DNA from: an uncultured Bacilli bacterium
GTDB taxonomy: Bacteria; Bacillota_I; Bacilli_A; RF39; UBA660
NCBI GenBank assembly: GCA_934130165.1
Contig: CAKOXO010000005.1
Span: 6,251 to 70,250, forward strand
DNA: 64,000 nucleotides
Reading direction: 5' to 3'
The notes beneath the pieces were generated by a model that saw only the letters and a list, made by a program, of their open reading frames with translations, ran no database searches and was not told where the DNA came from. The position numbers were made by a program, and so were the translations under genes. This document shows, one piece after another, positions 16,147-60,228 of this stretch; within the stretch, counting starts at the first letter, position 1, and each line of letters starts with the position of its first letter.

Positions 16147-16175
16147 TTGACAAAATCACAGTTTTATGGTATAAT
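16147..16175 (+). promoter_or_regulatory. sigma-A promoter
   Basis: TTGACA, 17 nt spacer, TATAAT, a perfect consensus, 30 nt upstream of the ORF at 16207. Confidence 0.7.
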
Positions 16176-16206: not shown

Positions 16207-16587
16207 ATGAAAATAGGTTTAGATCAAATATATAATGGTAATATTTCAGAGGTTGTTGATGTTGATATAGTTACAGAGTCAATTAGTCCTACAGTAGCTG
16301 TAGCTAAAAGCGTCCCTAAAACGCAATTAATAAAAGAGGATGCCTGTCTAATAAAAATCAAAGATGGACTATATGTTGATATTGATAATATTAGAAGTTT
16401 ATCTGACAGAGTTAAATTAAAAAGAGAGCTTAGAAGAGAAAAAAAGAAAAGAAACAATCTTTTAATACATACAACTGGTTCTTTAGTAGAACAATTAGTA
16501 GTTGATGATTCTGAAATTAAACCACTTTATCCAAATGAAAATAAAAAAATACCATTAAGAAAAATTAAAAAAATTAGAAATAAATAA
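16207..16587 (+). CDS. hypothetical basic protein (126 aa)
   Basis: RBS AGAGGGGGAA lies upstream. The C-terminus is Lys/Arg-rich. No recognisable family. Confidence 0.5.
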   Translation: MKIGLDQIYNGNISEVVDVDIVTESISPTVAVAKSVPKTQLIKEDACLIKIKDGLYVDIDNIRSLSDRVKLKRELRREKKKRNNLLIHTTGSLVEQLVVDDSEIKPLYPNENKKIPLRKIKKIRNK

Positions 16588-53057: not shown

Positions 53058-53312
53058 TTAAATTGTTCTTTTCTTTATTTTTCCTAGTCTTTTACAAAAT
53101 GGCTTTGGTTTACTATACACGATATTATTAATTTTATTTTCCATTCTATTTTTGCGTTCTTCCTTTGTTTCTCCAGCTATGTAATATCCATGTGTTGTTC
53201 TAATTTTGGTTCCTTTTTTAACTCTTATAAATGATTTATCTCCACCGCCTATCATAACAGGAACTGTATCATTGCTTCTATATTTACTCATTTTATTATT
53301 TTTAAAATTCAT
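53058..53312 (-). CDS. hypothetical basic protein (84 aa)
   Basis: Strong RBS AGGAGGGTG. Lys/Arg-rich. No recognisable family. Confidence 0.5.
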   Translation of the reverse strand: MNFKNNKMSKYRSNDTVPVMIGGGDKSFIRVKKGTKIRTTHGYYIAGETKEERKNRMENKINNIVYSKPKPFCKRLGKIKKRTI

Positions 53313-53370
53313 TATATTACACCCTCCTATTTCTTATTAACTTTGACTATTTATTTTTTTAGTTTTCAAC

Positions 53371-53676
53371 TCATTTTTTTCTAATCATGTATATTTTTAC
53401 TAGAAAATATACAGCAATCACACCTAAAATTAAATAATATATCCATCCTCCCACAAACAGTAAAAGTAATCCACCTACAAACACTTCCTCAAATGCATCT
53501 GATACAGACAATGGTTCTTCTAAAGGTTCACAATCAAATATACACAAAATATTTTCATGAGTACCAACAAGTGATATTGCCTTTATGCTAAGAAATATAC
53601 CCGGAATTAGGCAAAACAATAGAATGATATTTAGTCGTTTTTGATAATATTCTTCATTTTTATCAATCTTTTTCAT
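53371..53676 (-). CDS. hypothetical small membrane protein
   Basis: Two predicted TM helices. The start is ambiguous (the track start is TTG). Lies at the edge of a 650 nt non-coding region. Confidence 0.4.
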   Translation of the reverse strand: MKKIDKNEEYYQKRLNIILLFCLIPGIFLSIKAISLVGTHENILCIFDCEPLEEPLSVSDAFEEVFVGGLLLLFVGGWIYYLILGVIAVYFLVKIYMIRKK

Positions 53677-54341
53677 AATCACCAATCCTTTTTAAATAAT
53701 ATATTTTATATATTAATGCTTGTTTTGTAAATTTTCTAATACATTTATCCATTACCAAATAGTTGTTAATCACTATACAACAATAATACTATTGTACTCT
53801 AAAAGCCATTTGTACAAATAATGATTAAAATTTTCACCTCTTAAAACCTCATATATTCTTTCTACAAAGATATCATACAACAACTAATCATTGCAGATAT
53901 TTTACGAACTTTTTTAATACTTTATATTCGATTCAATAATATAAGTAAATTTCAATTTTTTATCTGCTAAATTAACTATGTGCTAACAACAGAAATGAAC
54001 ATCAGTTACTTATTAATTTTTTAGTGCTATGTTAGGTGAATAAATTTTTTTAATCGTTAAGATATATTAAAAAAATAGGGATAATTATAAATATTATTAT
54101 ATTCCTCAAAAAATTTAATCATTTTCACTTAATTACCTTTAGTGGAAAAATTGGTTACAATTATTCAACATAAAGACTATTGCCAATATAAGTCAACAAT
54201 TTAAGTATATAGCAATCCTAAATAAAAATATTATTTATACATATAATGACCATTTTTTAGCTTTGAATTTAATATATATTCTTAGATAAATTAATCTAAT
54301 ATATGTATCATAGTAGTCTATAGCATTTTTCTAAATATCAT

Positions 54342-54366
54342 AAAAAAACTAACTATTCCTAGTTAG
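54342..54366 (-). terminator. Rho-independent terminator (copy A of a duplicated terminator)
   Basis: On the minus strand: ctaact-aggaat-agttag followed by ttttttt. Part of a 37-nt near-identical repeat also found at 56488-56524. Confidence 0.7.
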
Positions 54367-54412
54367 CAAATCTATTACTGCTTGAACAAAAAGTTCAAAC
54401 ATCATATCAATT

Positions 54413-54449
54413 TGGTGCCAGTAAGGAGCAGGTCTAACAACTCCTAGGC
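54413..54449 (-). pseudogene. degenerate tRNA-Leu 3'-end-like remnant (att-like repeat)
   Basis: The minus-strand sequence reads ...ggagttgttagacctgctccttactggcacca, ending in GCACCA, and aligns with indels to the 3' part of tRNA-Leu at 56558-56642. It is followed by the same terminator as the intact tRNA and cannot fold as a complete tRNA. Confidence 0.5.
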
Positions 54450-54528
54450 AAAAAGATGATATTAAGTAATAAACTTACTAACTAACTACATTATACACAT
54501 TAACAAAACAAAAAGAAAGTATTTTATC

Positions 54529-55614
54529 CTACTTTCTTGTTTTCTTTAATATTGGTTTTTGTTCTTTTTCAAATTTATCATATGCTAATGTTGAATATTT
54601 TTCAAATTCATAATTACTGCTTTCAGGCAATTTTGAACTTCCTAAAATACTATTATCAGTTCTTATTAATTCAATTTGCTTCTTTGCTTCTTTTAAATCT
54701 TGTTTAGTTACATTTGGATTTAATCTTAATGATATTTTAGGTGTTTTAGTTAAAATTATTTTTGCTGATTTTTTTAATTGTTCGAGAGTATATTTTGTTA
54801 CGGGAATATCATAAAAATTAACTTTATAATTATTATGGTTAACAAAAAACATTTCAACACATTGAATAGAAATTTCCTCTTTGTTTGTTTTTATAATTAA
54901 TAGAGGATTATCATAAAGCGGTATTTCAAAAGCAATGTCACTAATATCAAAATCATATATTTTTTTCTGAATGAAATCTAAAAAACATGAATCTAAATTC
55001 AAATAGTCACCAACTACATTTGATGAATTACACTGAGTTTTAATATTTTCTTTTAAACTATCAACATTTTTTTGCATATATTCCTTAATAGATTGGACTA
55101 TCTTTTCTTCACTTTCTATTTTATATTCATTTTCTTGATATATCCCACCATTCAAATTAATAAAATATACATTATTATTTGAGTATGAAGTTTTATCTAA
55201 TAATTTTTCTAATTCATCTCTTGTTCTATAACCTGTTCTTTTAAAAATTGGCATAACTTTATTAATTAATAATGCTTCATCATTATCTTTTACAGCATAA
55301 CTTTCAATAATACTACCATCGACGATTCTAATATATGGTTTATCATATTCAAATAATTGATTTGCATAAATTCTTCTGTCAAATAATCCTACTCTTGAAT
55401 AATGTGTTGGTATATTTGAATAAGGAAATTGCTTTCTTCTTTCATCTTGTAAATATTTATTAATATAATAATTAGAGTTTTTTTTGTAATGAAATAAAAT
55501 GTCATCTTGACTCAATATTGTAATCCCATCTCTATATGGTGTCATAATTTGAATACAATCATCTGCTACATAACAACTTTTTATTCTTTGTATTATTTCA
55601 TTTGTTTTTTTCAC
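54529..55614 (-). CDS. hypothetical protein (361 aa), cargo of the tRNA-flanked cassette
   Basis: Long ORF, AT-rich codon usage, no recognisable motifs. Confidence 0.5.
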   Translation of the reverse strand: MKKTNEIIQRIKSCYVADDCIQIMTPYRDGITILSQDDILFHYKKNSNYYINKYLQDERRKQFPYSNIPTHYSRVGLFDRRIYANQLFEYDKPYIRIVDGSIIESYAVKDNDEALLINKVMPIFKRTGYRTRDELEKLLDKTSYSNNNVYFINLNGGIYQENEYKIESEEKIVQSIKEYMQKNVDSLKENIKTQCNSSNVVGDYLNLDSCFLDFIQKKIYDFDISDIAFEIPLYDNPLLIIKTNKEEISIQCVEMFFVNHNNYKVNFYDIPVTKYTLEQLKKSAKIILTKTPKISLRLNPNVTKQDLKEAKKQIELIRTDNSILGSSKLPESSNYEFEKYSTLAYDKFEKEQKPILKKTRK

Positions 55615-55689
55615 GACTAAACCTCCATTAAATTTTTGTTTAATATTATAACATACTTATAACTATTTTATCACAAATTATCTTATTTT

Positions 55690-56466
55690 TTATAATTCTA
55701 AGTCGTTATTTTTCTTTTTATCTTCTTTATAATCTTTTATAATAGGCAAATCATATATTTTCTTATATTCTTTTTCAGTTATTATATTATTTTCTCTTAA
55801 ATCATTTGCAACATCTTTATATTTACTTTTTAATATATTACCAAAGAACCCTTTAACTCTTTCAGATATAAAGTCTACAATTTCATTAACTCTTCGTTTC
55901 CATGATTCTACTTTTGCTTCAAACACAATTACTTTTTTATTTAAATCTTTTATTGTATTTTTTGCTACTATTAACAAACTTTCTTTTCCTTCTAATTTTA
56001 TTTTTAAATCTTCATTATCGTTGACTAAATTTCTAATAGTCTTATAATTATCATCTAAATCTTTTTTATCAGAGGATATTATCAAATTATTTTTTGATAA
56101 AGGTTGTTGTTTTAAGTTTTCTAATATTTCTTTAACCTCATTTGATTTATCATTTATCTTATCTACATTTTTATTTATTTCAGTTATTTTCTTATGTTGC
56201 TTGTTATAAGAATCTTTTAGTTTTATTTTCTCATTATAGCCATTTATAAAGACTTCTTCACTTTCTTCTAGTATTAAGTAATCATTTTCTTTAACTTTTA
56301 AAATGTGGAGTTTTGCATAGGCAATATTAGTGTTTTTAATTGATTTAATATTACCTGGTATAAATTCATATTTAACACAAGCAAACCGACATATCATATC
56401 TATCTTTCTATTAAGTTCATCACTTATTTTCAAATCTTTAGTTTCTATCTCAAACATAATCATCAC
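55690..56466 (-). CDS. hypothetical protein (258 aa) with N-terminal globular region and long coiled-coil
   Basis: Long ORF. Residues 90-200 are heptad-like (Lys/Glu/Asn-rich). No known family. Confidence 0.5.
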   Translation of the reverse strand: MMIMFEIETKDLKISDELNRKIDMICRFACVKYEFIPGNIKSIKNTNIAYAKLHILKVKENDYLILEESEEVFINGYNEKIKLKDSYNKQHKKITEINKNVDKINDKSNEVKEILENLKQQPLSKNNLIISSDKKDLDDNYKTIRNLVNDNEDLKIKLEGKESLLIVAKNTIKDLNKKVIVFEAKVESWKRRVNEIVDFISERVKGFFGNILKSKYKDVANDLRENNIITEKEYKKIYDLPIIKDYKEDKKKNNDLEL

Positions 56467-56487
56467 TCATCATTTCGTTTTAAGCAG

Positions 56488-56512
56488 AAAAAAACTAACT
56501 ATTTCTAGTTAG
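56488..56512 (-). terminator. Rho-independent terminator downstream of tRNA-Leu (copy B)
   Basis: On the minus strand: ctaact-agaaat-agttag followed by ttttttt. Confidence 0.7.
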
Positions 56513-56557
56513 TAATCTATTACTTAAACTCAGGGATTGTCCGAGTATCAATCAATA

Positions 56558-56642
56558 TGGTGCGGGTAACAGGAGTTGAACCTGCAAGGGTTGCCCCACT
56601 AGATCCTAAGTCTAGCGCGTCTGCCAATTCCGCCATACCCGC
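56558..56642 (-). tRNA. tRNA-Leu (anticodon TAG)
   Basis: Minus-strand sequence GCGGGTATGGCGGAATTGGCAGACGCGCTAGACTTAGGATCTAGTGGGGCAACCCTTGCAGGTTCAACTCCTGTTACCCGCACCA. It has a 7-bp acceptor stem, an anticodon stem CTAGA/TCTAG with loop CTTAGGA, a long variable arm, a T-loop TTCAACT and an encoded CCA. Confidence 0.9.
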
Positions 56643-56651
56643 AATAAAAAA

Positions 56652-56728
56652 TGGTGGACCCTATTGGACTCGAACCAATGACCGTTCGGTTATGAGCCGA
56701 ATGCTCTAACCAACTGAGCTAAGGGTCC
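56652..56728 (-). tRNA. tRNA-Met (anticodon CAT; elongator Met or Ile2-lysidine type)
   Basis: Minus-strand sequence GGACCCTTAGCTCAGTTGGTTAGAGCATTCGGCTCATAACCGAACGGTCATTGGTTCGAGTCCAATAGGGTCCACCA. It folds as a cloverleaf with a TTCGAGT T-loop and an encoded CCA. The anticodon stem lacks the initiator-type GGG/CCC. Confidence 0.9.
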
Positions 56729-56770
56729 ATCGCTATTTAATGATAGCATATTTTTTTTAATTGTGCAACA

Positions 56771-56800
56771 AAAAATAGAGATTTTTTTCTCTATTTTCCT
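56771..56800. terminator. bidirectional terminator
   Basis: Stem aatagaga / tctctatt with loop ttttttt, an A-run on the 5' side and a T-run on the 3' side. It overlaps the stop of the minus-strand gene 56791..57210 and separates it from the tRNA promoter. Confidence 0.7.
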
Positions 56801-57210
56801 AACATATTTAATAAATTGATTTTAAACATATCTCTTTCTGGATCGGTTTTTGAAATCATAACACCTTTGTATGTAGAAAGTTCAGCTCTATGTCCTTCAT
56901 CTAAAATTCCTTCTGGAGTGATATTAGTAAGTAGAATCACCTTTTTATCTGTATACACTGTATAATGTAATCTAATTTCACCATGAACTTTAACAAACAT
57001 TTTATCAGTTGGCAATTTTAATTCATAAGAAATTGTTTTAGCTTTTTCATCTTTGCTAATTTCTTCTCCTAAAAAGTTTCCTTTACGAATTTCTGGATAA
57101 AAGTTAAAAGTTAATTTCTTGTAAGCTAGCATGTTATACTTTCTTAAAGATCTTTCTTTTTTTCTAAAATCATTTTCATCCAAATACTCAAATATATAAG
57201 AATTATCCAT
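56791..57210 (-). CDS. hypothetical protein (139 aa), possible RelE/ParE-like fold at C-terminus
   Basis: Consensus promoter and RBS TAGGGGG upstream. C-terminal VHGEIRLHYTVYTDKKVILLTNITPEG resembles the g.yRiiYrvd.e.k.v.il.ig.R core of RelE/ParE toxins. Weak. Confidence 0.4.
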   Translation of the reverse strand: MDNSYIFEYLDENDFRKKERSLRKYNMLAYKKLTFNFYPEIRKGNFLGEEISKDEKAKTISYELKLPTDKMFVKVHGEIRLHYTVYTDKKVILLTNITPEGILDEGHRAELSTYKGVMISKTDPERDMFKINLLNMLGK

Positions 57211-57271
57211 ATATATTCAACCCCCTAAACATTATAGTATTGAAGACCCCTGCTATCTTCAAAGTACACAC

Positions 57272-57300
57272 ATTATAGCATAATATTAGTAATTTGTCAA
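57272..57300 (-). promoter_or_regulatory. consensus sigma-A promoter (minus strand)
   Basis: On the minus strand: TTGACA, 17 nt spacer, TATAAT, perfect hexamers, about 60 nt upstream of the ATG at 57210. Confidence 0.7.
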
Positions 57301-57339
57301 CATTTGTCATATAAATTGCCATTTATTATACACTTATTA

Positions 57340-58599
57340 TTAGTTTTTATCACTATTATATTTCCAATTTAATTGCTTTTTATATACTTTATTTTTACTA
57401 ATATCTCGCAAATCGAGATTATAGTTATTACCATCATTTAACTTTCTTAATGCTACATCTTTAAAAATGCTTACAGATGCATCTTCATCAGTTACTTTAT
57501 TTACAAGTTTGTAAGTTAAATATCTTTGGTAGTTTTCTTCTGTTTTAGCATCATATAATTTATTAAGTTTTACCTTTTCTTTTTTTGTTAAACTGTTAAC
57601 TCCTTTGGTGTTGTTACACATTATTTGCATAGCATCTATAATAGATTTAACAGATAAATAAGAATTAGAAATATTAGTTTTTCCCCTAAAATCATTTCTA
57701 ACCATTTTAAAGAATATATTGGCAAGTTTTTTCTTTCTACTAAAACTATTTTCTCTATTAAATTTAATTAGTGCATTCTCATATTTATAATAAACTTCCC
57801 TAGATTTTATATTTTGAATTAATGTGTTTGTAGAAAATGATTCAACCTGTACTATACGATATTTAATATCTTCTTTAATAGCAGCTTTATAGTTTTCTTT
57901 TAAAGATAAAACATCTAACTCACCATCCAAATAAATATCATTCATTTGTTCCTCGTCTAGCATATTAAACATTAAATATTCACTTTCTATCTCTTCATAT
58001 GAATGAGCTAGCTTTTGATTTTTATAGTTATATCTATTAGCTAAGAAAACATTATAATCCTTAAGACTTCTCCAAATATTAGAAATATATTTACTTTTAT
58101 TTAAATTAATGTTTCTCATTGCTAAAATTTCATATACATTACTATATTCATCAGCTGATTTCATTTTTCTTAAATAATCTTGTTCATTTCGATTTCTATT
58201 AAAAATGAAATCATACACATCTACCATTCGTAATTTTCCTTCTGTATTACTAAAAATTATTGCAATAAGTGCTGAATATAGGGCTAATTTTTTTATTCCA
58301 ATATGTTTTACAGTTATATCTGGTGCCTTTGTTTTAAAAGAATCTTTTTCTTTTTCAGTGCCCTTTTTTGTATCAAACTCTGCTACTTTTTTTAAAAGTT
58401 CCGTTTTAGTTAAAAATAATACATTATTTTTAACCCTAGAGTCAGACAATGATTTAATATTTTCTTGATTGCAGTATTCCTTTATTTTCTCCTTGCCTAT
58501 GTTTTCTGTAGTTTTTTGTATTTTATTATCACTATAGATTATTATTGATTTTCTCTTTTGGTTATCAGTATAAAATACTATCTGTTTTATTTTTTTCAT
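57340..58599 (-). CDS. hypothetical protein (419 aa)
   Basis: Long ORF, Lys/Asn-rich, no recognisable catalytic motifs. Confidence 0.5.
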   Translation of the reverse strand: MKKIKQIVFYTDNQKRKSIIIYSDNKIQKTTENIGKEKIKEYCNQENIKSLSDSRVKNNVLFLTKTELLKKVAEFDTKKGTEKEKDSFKTKAPDITVKHIGIKKLALYSALIAIIFSNTEGKLRMVDVYDFIFNRNRNEQDYLRKMKSADEYSNVYEILAMRNINLNKSKYISNIWRSLKDYNVFLANRYNYKNQKLAHSYEEIESEYLMFNMLDEEQMNDIYLDGELDVLSLKENYKAAIKEDIKYRIVQVESFSTNTLIQNIKSREVYYKYENALIKFNRENSFSRKKKLANIFFKMVRNDFRGKTNISNSYLSVKSIIDAMQIMCNNTKGVNSLTKKEKVKLNKLYDAKTEENYQRYLTYKLVNKVTDEDASVSIFKDVALRKLNDGNNYNLDLRDISKNKVYKKQLNWKYNSDKN

Positions 58600-58607
58600 T
58601 AGACTTC

Positions 58608-59900
58608 CTACTTCTTTAATTCCTTTTTGCCAGAGTACTTGTAACCATTATTCAATAAATATTTATTATCATAACTTGACCAAACATAAGAATATGAATT
58701 TAAAATATTTCTTGTTCTAGTCATTTTAGTACATATTTCCTCATTTTGAGATACAGTTATATTTTCTGCTTGATATGAATAACTATCTACCATTTTACTA
58801 ATATAACCATTACCGCAATAACTATTATAAGTGATACCATTATAAACATATTTATCAAAATATATTTCTCTATTTACAGATTTATTATTTAGAGTCTTAT
58901 TATATACATATTTTGTATTTAACGTATCTTTTGGTGGATAGGAATATTTTTCTGTTGATATATAGTTCCAATTACTAAGATTTGAATAATCGGATGAGAC
59001 TTTATATAAAGTATTATTGAATGAGATATAATCATATCCTTGGCATACTTTTAATAAATTAGAACCTACCTTTTTTATAGAAATTTTATTTAAATTAAAA
59101 AATTGTTTATTATTTTGTTTTTCTATTTTTTCCTCTTTTAGGCATATACTATCACTTTCACAATTAATATTAGTCGCAGAACATGAGATTATTCCGCTAT
59201 TAACCCAAGGGGACCATGAACTATACAAAATACTATTTTCCTTAACATACTGATATATATATTCTCTATTTGTAGTATCAACTATTTCAATACTACCTTT
59301 GTATGTTGTTATACGTCGTTTTTTTGTGGTTTTCTTTGCTTGAGATATTGATTGACTTGTTTTTTTAGTTGATTCTACATCATCATCTTCACTTGTATTT
59401 TCATTTTCTATTAAAGTTTCTTTATTTTGTTTTTTATTGTTATCTTTTTCACATAAAAATGTAGAACAAGTTCCATTATCTTCTAATTTTACTAAAATAT
59501 AATCTTTATCTTTATTGCATTTTAAAAATATTTTCATTTCATAACTAATAGTTGATGTTTTTCTCAAAGTTACGTATGAAGAAGTAGAATTACATGTTTT
59601 ATTGTTTGAGTCTTTTATAACCAATTTTTTATTTATTTCTTTTAAAGTAATCTTTTTATTAGAATCTATTATATCTTGAATATTTTCTTCAGTAAAATAT
59701 TTTAATGCCTCTTTTTTTATTGCTTGCAAATTATCAGAAAGAGTTTTAGCAGCATTTTTTTGATAATTTGAATTATTATTTTTAGAATTTTCTTTTCTTG
59801 TACATAAAAATACCACTAAAAACAAAGCTAAAATAATAATCATAAGTTTTATAAAAAAACGGCTTACTGGAAATAATTTTTCTCTATAACTATAATTCAT
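58608..59900 (-). CDS. hypothetical membrane-anchored, Cys/Asn/Tyr-rich extracytoplasmic protein
   Basis: ATG at 59900 with RBS GGAGAGGT 5 nt upstream (the track start lies further upstream). N-terminal TM FFIKLMIIILALFLVVFLC. The mature part contains about 20 Cys and many NxS/T and Tyr residues. Confidence 0.5.
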   Translation of the reverse strand: MNYSYREKLFPVSRFFIKLMIIILALFLVVFLCTRKENSKNNNSNYQKNAAKTLSDNLQAIKKEALKYFTEENIQDIIDSNKKITLKEINKKLVIKDSNNKTCNSTSSYVTLRKTSTISYEMKIFLKCNKDKDYILVKLEDNGTCSTFLCEKDNNKKQNKETLIENENTSEDDDVESTKKTSQSISQAKKTTKKRRITTYKGSIEIVDTTNREYIYQYVKENSILYSSWSPWVNSGIISCSATNINCESDSICLKEEKIEKQNNKQFFNLNKISIKKVGSNLLKVCQGYDYISFNNTLYKVSSDYSNLSNWNYISTEKYSYPPKDTLNTKYVYNKTLNNKSVNREIYFDKYVYNGITYNSYCGNGYISKMVDSYSYQAENITVSQNEEICTKMTRTRNILNSYSYVWSSYDNKYLLNNGYKYSGKKELKK

Positions 59901-59973
59901 AACTACCTCTCCTATCAAGTTATTTATACTACCATTATTAGTCTCTAAAGTCAATAATAGCAAAGAAAAACAA

Positions 59974-60228
59974 TTATAAATTTAACTCTATAATTGTTTG
60001 ACCTTCATTAAAATTATCTAATTTAAAACTTCTTACATTTTTGTTGTTTTTTAATTCGTTATGAACCGCTTTTTTTACTATTCCTTTACCAATTCCATGT
60101 ATTACAACTATTTTTTCATTTTTTAGTGTAATATTATCATTTACAAAATTTTTTACTAGAATCGCTGCTATATCTCCCGTTTCACCATGTAAATCAATAG
60201 TTGGTAAATTCTTATATAATATCATCAT
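59974..60228 (-). CDS. Smr-domain protein
   Basis: PTIDLHGETGDIAAILVKNFV...IVVIHGIGKGIVKKAVHNEL is the Smr (small MutS-related) signature. 84 aa. Confidence 0.7.
   Translation of the reverse strand: MMILYKNLPTIDLHGETGDIAAILVKNFVNDNITLKNEKIVVIHGIGKGIVKKAVHNELKNNKNVRSFKLDNFNEGQTIIELNL

Follow-up and report, generated by a model that had tools for sequence, protein, structure and literature searches.

To our knowledge, nearly all characterized proteins with the RelE/ParE fold are selfish toxins of patchy distribution that an antitoxin restrains; the only exception studied in any depth is RegB of phage T4, which occurs only in T4-like phages and is dispensable. It has a RelE/YoeB-type fold with no sequence similarity to the toxins, has no known antitoxin, and relies on two catalytic histidines; it cleaves GGAG Shine-Dalgarno (SD) sequences, including the one in its own mRNA (PMC3014915). 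Here we describe p139, a 139-amino-acid (139-aa) protein with a predicted RelE/ParE-like fold, encoded in 64,000 nucleotides of DNA from an uncultured Bacilli bacterium (GTDB lineage Bacillota_I; Bacilli_A; RF39; UBA660; assembly GCA_934130165.1, contig CAKOXO010000005.1, positions 6,251 to 70,250). This whole stretch is called the window below. The p139 gene is one of three co-oriented minus-strand open reading frames (ORFs), listed at 56791 to 57210, 57340 to 58599, and 58608 to 59963; the products of the other two are called P419, for the 419-aa protein, and P430.

We favor, with moderate confidence, a reading in which these genes are two unrelated units on a vertically inherited chromosome, and in which p139 is a domesticated, antitoxin-less RelE-fold factor. 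By analogy with RegB, RNA would be the target of p139, probably at or close to the ribosome. The block and its immediate neighbors are as follows:

56791 to 57210, minus strand: p139, 139 aa, a stand-alone protein of predicted RelE/ParE-like fold (ORF, homologs, predicted structure)
57340 to 58599, minus strand: P419, a lineage-specific protein (ORF, homolog comparison)
58608 to 59900, minus strand: P430, a predicted membrane-anchored protein (ORF, ribosome-binding site, strain comparison)
59974 to 60228, minus strand: Smr-domain protein (PF01713, E = 5.6e-14), the conserved upstream anchor of the P430-P419 pair
56652 to 56728, minus strand: tRNA with a CAT anticodon (Met according to ARAGORN), 62 nt downstream of p139
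56558 to 56642, minus strand: tRNA-Leu(TAG), directly downstream of tRNA(CAT) on the same strand

The initial annotation had described three minus-strand genes of no recognizable family next to a tRNA pair set between conserved core genes, and both descriptions hold. The three ORFs are present and lie between LysM and the genes for Smr, PfkB, PPDK, and TK. None of p139, P419, and P430 matched Pfam, NCBIfam, PHROGs, or PADLOC; scans of the three proteins, their neighbors, and 20 larger homologs against these libraries gave nothing above threshold, and none of the three matched a PADLOC defense-system model even at E ≤ 1.

Predicted fold, conservation, and context of p139

An AlphaFold2 (AF2) model of p139, computed from 30 diverse family members at 34 to 60% identity, had a predicted local distance difference test score (pLDDT) of 91.2 and a predicted template modeling (TM) score of 0.81, with the topology beta-alpha-alpha-beta-beta-alpha-beta-beta-alpha-alpha. 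Foldseek against the PDB placed RelE-superfamily chains first, and these made up 15 of the 20 best matches (HigB2, P. horikoshii and E. coli RelE, M. tuberculosis RelE2, and S. aureus YoeB), with probabilities up to 0.99, target-normalized TM scores of 0.57 to 0.68, and root-mean-square deviations of 3 to 4 Å over about 96 columns. The only segment aligned by hhalign pairs p139 YELKLP, a 9-residue insertion (KMFVKVHGE), and IRLHYTVY with YKIKLRSSG-YRLVYQV of RelE (YKIKLRSSGYRLVYQV); the E. coli RelE sequence was checked against 4FXE. A RelE/ParE-type fold, that is, a compact alpha/beta arrangement of an N-terminal strand, a two-helix hairpin, an antiparallel sheet of three to five strands, and a C-terminal helix, is a reasonable prediction for p139, and the motif at residues 77 to 98 (GEIRLHYTVYTDKKVILLTNIT) corresponds to the topologically equivalent strand pair of RelE. 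The RelE/ParE-like motif first annotated in the 139-aa protein thus stands at the level of the fold but not at that of sequence, where no family model matches.

In its predicted fold, its order of strands and helices, its small size, and its moderately basic character, p139 resembles the RelE, YoeB, and HigB toxins, as it does in the local strand motif YxxKL...(I/Y)RLxYxV...vvvl.i. However, it has an extra helix between strands (residues 70 to 76) and a 35-residue C-terminal extension, no curated family model matches it, and the positions that appear equivalent to the RelE and YoeB catalytic residues vary across the family. The distribution of the gene also differs from that of these toxins, which are patchy and mobile, whereas p139 is found at one locus per genome in the loci examined, ultraconserved and fixed.

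A scan of one genome per GTDB species with the p139 family gave at least 525 matching stretches. The species-level counts that follow refer to the best 80 loci, one per assembly, at 78 to 94% identity. All 80 come from uncultured gut "Bacilli," under labels that include Tenericutes, Mycoplasma sp. CAG:877, Erysipelotrichaceae, Ca. Faecimonas, and Ca. Onthousia. There is one copy of p139 per genome in the loci examined, the 80 best loci being from 80 assemblies, and the 64-kb window holds no paralog. p139 is the best-conserved gene of its neighborhood, with a nonsynonymous divergence (dN) half that of PPDK. The values below are mean identities over 40 species loci and dN against eight species, with synonymous divergence (dS) near 1 for all genes:

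p139: mean identity 84.9%, dN 0.088
PPDK: mean identity 72.0%, dN 0.183
pfkB: mean identity 60.3%, dN 0.305
Smr: mean identity 51.1%, dN 0.39
P430: mean identity 27.1%, dN 0.66
P419: mean identity 29.1%, dN 0.75

Within the species of the window, p139 shows zero nonsynonymous differences. By these comparisons, p139 is under stronger purifying selection than PPDK, a central glycolytic enzyme. A search gave more than 3,100 clusters of homologs; the family comprises more than 3,000 clusters at 90% identity and 341 at 50%, and its named members are all annotated as "hypothetical protein." This distribution marks p139 as part of the core genome of a large group of uncultured gut Bacilli, in which it is fixed in 80 species at the least and probably in several hundred. 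Thirty diverse members of the family gave no Pfam or NCBIfam match, the family is also absent from PHROGs, and searches of plasmids and INPHARED phages found no member. Fusion partners in the longer members are uninformative, with only one DUF6020 and one zinc ribbon, both of which may be gene-call fusions.

The surroundings of p139 were compared by clustering all ORFs across the 80 loci. The P430 cluster was present in 49 of the 80 loci, the P419 and pfkB clusters in 47 each, and the Smr cluster in 46. Where present, the genes always follow the order pfkB-Smr-P430-P419-p139, which is syntenic in about 47 of the 80 species loci. Among strains with identical p139, the arrangement Smr-P430-P419-p139-tRNAs is found in all (six strain contexts, representing 14 similar places). 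In other clades, p139 lies behind clusters c8 and c6 (AddB- and AddA-like by eye; about 17 loci), behind c42 (GerM-like by eye; 5 loci), or behind c81 and c32 (ThyA- and PBP2-like by eye; 3 loci), and P419 does not adjoin p139 in at least 25 loci. Since p139 is found without the other two genes at its side in at least three further chromosomal contexts, the three genes are not a single system. Downstream, tRNA(CAT) and then tRNA-Leu(TAG) follow p139 in 51 of the 80 loci; 9 loci have no room for the pair and 20 are without it. Taken across species and strains, these comparisons indicate that the block is ordinary, vertically inherited chromosome holding two independent units, P430 with P419 and p139 on its own.

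The contrasting possibility would make p139 a type II toxin, or else an effector of abortive infection, neutralized by P419 or by an unrecognized or unlinked antitoxin, and the block a tRNA-associated defense or addiction island. This would suit the RelE-like fold, the position next to tRNA genes and beside a strain-variable cassette, and the relatives of p139 on phage genomes, as well as a GC content of 0.20 to 0.25 over 57.0 to 60.0 kb, compared with 0.27 to 0.36 in the flanking pfkB and PPDK genes. It is nevertheless very improbable. In the best 80 loci, p139 is fixed, syntenic, and under purifying selection above that on PPDK, the opposite of toxin-antitoxin and defense genes. It has a constitutive consensus promoter to itself, with no small gene co-transcribed; no co-transcribed antitoxin was found, given that tRNAs lie downstream and the upstream neighbor differs by clade (P419, or an AddA-, GerM-, or PBP2-like gene). 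The many loci in which P419 is not adjacent count against P419 as the antitoxin, as does its roughly 8-fold faster divergence, and the small upstream neighbor of the phage copies is not a consistent family. Because p139 is a fixed gene at one locus per genome, under purifying selection stronger than that on PPDK and with no neighboring antitoxin, we do not consider it a selfish toxin.

The block does share features with tRNA-linked islands, in that it adjoins a tRNA pair, the DNA beyond the tRNAs differs between strains, and the p139 homolog of one relative has a restriction enzyme and an integrase right behind it. However, the three genes lie 5' of the tRNAs, no strain examined lacks them, and their synteny extends across species. 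In addition to the lack of a PADLOC match, family-library scans of 56.8 to 60.0 kb turned up no integrase, recombinase, or mobility gene (direct repeats were not searched for). Base composition points neither way, the GC content of 57.0 to 60.0 kb being below that of the pfkB and PPDK genes but similar to that of LysM and other nonmetabolic genes at 52 to 56 kb. The roughly 7-kb tRNA-associated accessory island of the initial annotation is not borne out by this pattern, nor is an abortive-infection, toxin-immunity, or receptor system, as the genes are vertically inherited and p139 lacks an adjacent antitoxin and is separable from the other two. That annotation had also named what would speak against it, namely conserved presence of the genes in the same context with sporulation-coat or housekeeping annotation, together with the lack of a RelE-like fold; the conserved context was found, but so was the RelE-like fold.

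Promoter and leader of p139

p139 is monocistronic, with its own promoter in the 129-nt intergenic region upstream. The signals around the gene are as follows:

57272 to 57300, minus strand: sigma-A-type promoter TTGACA-17-TGcTATAAT with a TG-extended -10, driving p139 (perfect match)
57240 to 57262, minus strand: 5'-proximal leader hairpin, TTGAAGA / loop TAGCAGGGG / TCTTCAA (from sequence)
57247 to 57250, minus strand: second SD-like G-run, GGGG, inside the leader hairpin
57221 to 57226, minus strand: strong SD sequence AGGGGG, followed by the conserved TTGAATAT spacer and ATG 57210
56740 to 56767, minus strand: weaker promoter-like site TGCACA-16-TATCAT with a TG-extended -10, between p139 and the tRNAs (9/12 match)
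56487 to 56513, minus strand: AT-rich hairpin (ACTAACTA-GAAA-TAGTTAGT) and T7 after tRNA-Leu, found by eye and below the GC threshold of the terminator scan

The perfect promoter first noted for p139 is confirmed and widely conserved: it matches the consensus at 12 of 12 positions in 77 of 86 loci and at 11 of 12 in 6 more, mostly with the TG, across four upstream gene contexts. The exact TTGACA-17-TATAAT pattern occurs twice in the window, compared with 0.10 expected. The leaders have a median length of 62 nt and a conserved ACTTTGAAGRTA at the start, and the hairpin begins at most 4 nt from the assumed +1 in 66 of 72 unique leaders. Its stem variants (TTGAAG:CTTCAA, TTGATG:CATCAA, and TTGAGG:CCTTAA) look compensatory by eye. 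An upstream run of at least four G is present in 56 of 76 leaders, where shuffled sequences gave a mean of 6.6 and a maximum of 14. Its position is fixed at about 20 nt past the -10 box (interquartile range 20 to 21), and in many leaders it falls in the loop or on the 3' side of the hairpin. A G-run lies within 14 nt of the ATG in 74 of 76 leaders, and AGGGGGTTGAATAT is the commonest form of the SD region. The perfect promoter, the 5' hairpin, the SD-like G-run, and the strong SD together suggest that p139 is probably among the most highly expressed genes of the cell.

The closest described parallels for such a leader are the 5' stabilizers of Bacillus. These are the STAB-SD of cryIIIA (Agaisse and Lereclus 1996, as cited in PMC5737220) and the strong SD of hbs mRNA, at which initiating or bound ribosomes block RNase J1 (PMC5737220). 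The p139 mRNA has in common with them an SD-like G-rich element near the 5' end, a 5' hairpin, a strong true SD, and a small, probably abundant protein product. However, the placement of the G-run in the loop or 3' side of the hairpin in many leaders means that it could equally be a protein-binding or cleavage site. The conserved G-rich element may thus be a plain mRNA stabilizer of the STAB-SD type or a site of feedback control.

At the other end of the gene, the scan found no terminator of sufficient grade in the gap before the tRNAs, so transcripts begun at the p139 promoter may read through into them. The AT-rich hairpin after tRNA-Leu is the likely terminator closing a p139/tRNA unit. An Rfam scan of the region found the two tRNAs and nothing else, and the p139 leader matches no Rfam family.

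Elsewhere in the window, the only other perfect TTGACA-17-TATAAT promoter, also with the TG, lies at 16147 to 16175 on the plus strand, before an ORF at 16207 to 16587 (plus strand). This ORF encodes a 126-aa protein without a Pfam family. The start of its leader (GTGTTCACTTTAA...GAGGGGG) is similar to that of p139, and the gene may be another orphan with high expression.

Possible functions of p139

Several results weigh against p139 as a RelE-fold factor acting on RNA. The Foldseek E-values were 0.02 to 0.1, with none at or below 1e-3. Library scans and PDB sequence and profile searches gave no sequence-level link between p139 and any RelE, ParE, HigB, YoeB, or RegB model, and hhalign assigned the p139 family a probability of 1.3% against E. 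coli RelE and 0.1% against YoeB. The positions equivalent to the catalytic residues of RelE and YoeB vary across the family, which has no invariant His or Glu, so a purely binding role is equally compatible with this pattern. The leader hairpin had a mean minimum free energy z score of -1.26, compared with -0.99 in a control region that is itself structured. RNAalifold on an ungapped leader alignment gave no consensus and the covariation test failed, because the 3' arm lies at variable offsets in such an alignment. Finally, the case for high expression draws on sequence signals only.

The PDB sequence and profile searches with p139 returned only chance matches, to histone H1 and a sortase. The histone H1 match was rejected, as the secondary structure does not fit.

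Is the likeness to RelE then a coincidence? p139 could be an unrelated, lineage-specific housekeeping or developmental protein, for instance in sporulation or tRNA metabolism, whose position by the tRNAs is functional. The E-values, all at least 0.018, are weak, query-normalized TM scores reach only 0.33 to 0.46, and the hhalign probability is about 1%. Moreover, the link of p139 to tRNA(CAT)-tRNA-Leu(TAG) survives changes of upstream context, and the window comes from a spore-former-like genome (SirA, LysM, and a sigma factor). However, three-quarters of the best PDB matches (15/20) come from a single superfamily, at the probabilities and deviations given above, the topology beta-alpha-alpha-beta-beta-(alpha)-beta-beta matches, and the single aligned sequence segment is the equivalent strand pair. 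A role tied to the tRNAs also sits poorly with the 20 of 80 GTDB loci, and all of the phage loci, that are without them, and a sporulation role sits poorly with a promoter of sigma-A consensus rather than sporulation-sigma type. We therefore regard coincidence as improbable.

If the fold is accepted, the main rival to an RNA-acting factor is a noncatalytic binder: an abundant protein that reuses the RelE/ParE scaffold, as a ParE-like modulator (of gyrase, for example), an adaptor, or a nucleic-acid binder, without nuclease activity. Members of the ParE-type fold are not nucleases. The catalytic constellations are K52/K54/R61/R81/Y87 in RelE and E46/R65/H83/Y84 in YoeB. In the hhalign comparison, p139 R80 aligns with RelE R61 and YoeB R65, but this position is Lys or Arg in only 16 of 30 family members; position 63 is Glu in 17 of 30 and position 107 is His in 16 of 30. 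No His, Glu, or Arg is invariant; besides Y62 and K130, the residues that come close to invariance are mostly Gly, Pro, and hydrophobic ones. With an isoelectric point of 8.9, the protein is no more than mildly basic, and its very strong expression signals would suit a stoichiometric binder. Against this, it is the ribosome-dependent RNases RelE, YoeB, and HigB2, and not ParE, that match the model best, and the conserved polar positions of the family (R/K20, Y62, Y/H76, Y83, K115, and K130), together with K/R80, resemble the Lys/Arg/Tyr-type site of RelE. The genomic context names no partner or target for a binder. On this evidence, a noncatalytic role is unlikely, and an RNA-acting, domesticated RelE-fold factor remains our preferred reading.

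Phage genomes provide a further line of comparison. Homologs at 53 to 60% identity (P0189 and L096) are in chromosomal contexts. In IMG/VR, 27 contigs carry p139 relatives at 29 to 60% identity, and in most of these the gene belongs to a tightly coupled block that consists of a DnaD-like loader (phrog_5708, E = 2e-49), a G39P-like loader (PF11417), a transcriptional regulator (phrog_36), a small variable ORF, the p139 homolog, and a nucleoside triphosphate (NTP) pyrophosphohydrolase (phrog_2245). The genes for distant members P0358 and P0367 belong to long series of small genes in one orientation, which also encode a chaperonin, a Dda-like helicase (phrog_325, E = 3e-69), and a RuvC-like resolvase. 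From these gene neighborhoods, the diverged relatives of p139 are placed in phage replication and regulation modules.

Two large phage-like contigs from ENA, L090 (120 kb) and L092 (43 kb), carry a p139 homolog with an N-terminal extension. They also encode a Cpn60/GroEL-type chaperonin, a Dda-like/PIF1 helicase, a phosphoribosyltransferase, and a dCMP deaminase, and most of their genes have no family. We do not take the small ORF beside the p139 homologs of phages for an antitoxin, as these neighbors belong to several unrelated clusters.

This phage branch, among early, replication, and regulatory genes, is one of the points at which the p139 family recalls RegB, by analogy only. The two are also similar in size (153 aa for RegB and 125 to 160 aa in the p139 family), and RegB cleaves its own SD, while the p139 leader carries a conserved extra SD-like G-run. 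Unlike RegB, p139 has no invariant His and is a core chromosomal gene of a bacterial clade, and the PDB profile search did not retrieve RegB. A more specific proposal would make p139 the founder of an undescribed, antitoxin-less RelE-fold family, an essential and highly abundant housekeeping factor of an order-level clade of uncultured gut Bacilli that acts as a ribosome-associated mRNA endonuclease or A-site factor, governs mRNA turnover or translation globally, feeds back on itself through its G-rich leader, and has diverged counterparts in phages, which would use them to manipulate the process. In this full form, we consider the proposal speculative and rather doubtful.

The membrane pair and the DNA beyond the tRNAs

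The P430 gene most likely starts at ATG 59900, in place of the TTG that gives a 451-aa ORF, because a GGAGAGG ribosome-binding site lies ahead of this ATG and the resulting 430 aa equal the gene length called in other strains. The gap between P430 and P419 is 8 nt, so that the genes are translationally close. P430 has a short N-terminal tail, a transmembrane anchor, a conserved membrane-proximal domain, a hypervariable low-complexity linker, and a conserved C-terminal domain of about 250 aa that is rich in Cys, Tyr, and Trp (YxYEY...WSxWSxW...C). The anchor is the best-conserved part of the family, whose N terminus reads MYTEEYExRGFPFRDFLLKLILIIIFVFLLVWLLPKF. With 11.8% Asn and 8.1% Tyr, P430 agrees with the earlier description of a membrane-anchored, Cys-, Tyr-, and Asn-rich protein that probably faces outward, except that it contains 11 Cys and not about 20. 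P419 consists of an N-terminal beta/alpha domain of about 90 aa, a hydrophobic helix at about residues 104 to 118, and an all-helical domain of about 290 aa. Its family shares an N-terminal NIVFY...QACIFYxDGTV, a charged linker, the hydrophobic segment, and the conserved helical domain. Most P419 homologs are 500 to 1150 aa long, with an additional coiled coil and acidic tail that the window copy lacks. No Pfam domain was found in 10 homologs of P419, and none above threshold in 10 homologs of P430.

In some P430 homologs (L022, 5733 to 7586; L040, 5803 to 7467; and others), the linker is expanded into tandem CxxVNGKYYxKxGxVVxKxxYExxC repeats with 17 to 28 Cys, for which the only family match was weak, subthreshold, and MORN_2-like. 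Two candidate assignments for the pair were not retained. A prepilin-like reading of the P430 N terminus (RGF-P-F-R-D) was rejected, since the Gly varies within the clade to which the window belongs and there is no match to an N_methyl model, and an RsgI-like anti-sigma reading of the P419 N-terminal domain, suggested by pattern, is not claimed, as it has no Pfam support.

Both proteins are lineage-specific and diverge rapidly. Between species, identities are 24 to 36% for P419 and 24 to 33% for P430. Between strains of the window's species, synonymous (pS) and nonsynonymous (pN) divergence is 0.22 to 0.23 and about 0.06 for P419 (pN/pS 0.27) and 0.11 and 0.025 for P430 (pN/pS 0.22), compared with a pS of 0.04 to 0.08 and a pN of at most 0.005 in the flanks. 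This pattern indicates a within-species divergence hotspot, in which old divergent alleles would be exchanged under relaxed constraint, and not positive selection as such. We infer that P430 and P419 are single-pass membrane proteins with large noncytoplasmic domains, and they would be displayed on the envelope, where the host or phages would exert pressure on them. Two related uncultured orders, RFN20 and ML615J-28, are reported to lack sortases (PMC10868615), which would make N-terminal anchoring the expected mode of display. It counts against this account of the pair that its functional part draws on architecture and evolutionary rate only, and that the AF2 model of P419, from a shallow alignment, had a pLDDT of 39.5, so that only its secondary structure was used.

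Variation between strains is confined to the far side of the tRNAs, at about 53.0 to 56.5 kb, where the window has the following feature:

53058 to 56466, minus strand: strain-variable cassette of 258-, 361-, 104-, and 84-aa ORFs, replaced in other strains of the same species

In those strains, unrelated 192- plus 85-aa, 152-aa, or 41-aa genes stand in its place. Homologs of the cassette are nearly absent from other species, and its ORFs have no family match above threshold; the 258-aa ORF encodes a coiled-coil protein. In L096 (1387 to 4063; IMGVR_UViG_3300031555_010520), a restriction endonuclease of the MvaI/BcnI family lies no more than 27 nt behind a chromosomal-type p139 homolog of 60% identity, with a phage-type integrase after it. 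Because the restriction enzyme and integrase directly follow the p139 homolog there, insertions seem to have recurred immediately downstream of p139 in different lineages.

Two observations concern other neighbors. In loci L001 to L006, a 666- to 707-aa protein, encoded between a sigma-factor gene and tdk (629 to 2728 in L001), has a weak prepilin N-methylation-site match and varies in length by strain. The tRNA at 56652 to 56728 (minus strand) starts with GGACCCTTAGCTCAGTTGGTTAGAGC and has CTCATAA in its anticodon loop. In these features it seems nearer to tRNA-Ile2, with a lysidine-modified CAU anticodon, than to an elongator or initiator tRNA-Met. If it is tRNA-Ile2, it would be an AUA decoder in this AT-rich genome.

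Altogether, p139 is a new sequence family of a known, predicted fold in an unusual role: fixed, well conserved, probably abundant, without an adjacent partner, and shared with phages. As the family is absent from Pfam, NCBIfam, and PHROGs, defining it would be useful. The negative outcome also matters, in that the block is not a defense or addiction island. P430 and P419 are candidate exposed envelope proteins and possibly phage receptors or immune targets of the same lineage. If p139 proves inert, it would show how the RelE scaffold gets reused. If it does act on RNA or on ribosomes, it would clearly exemplify the domestication of a toxin fold for housekeeping and would give a handle on the physiology of a large, uncultured gut lineage with reduced genomes.

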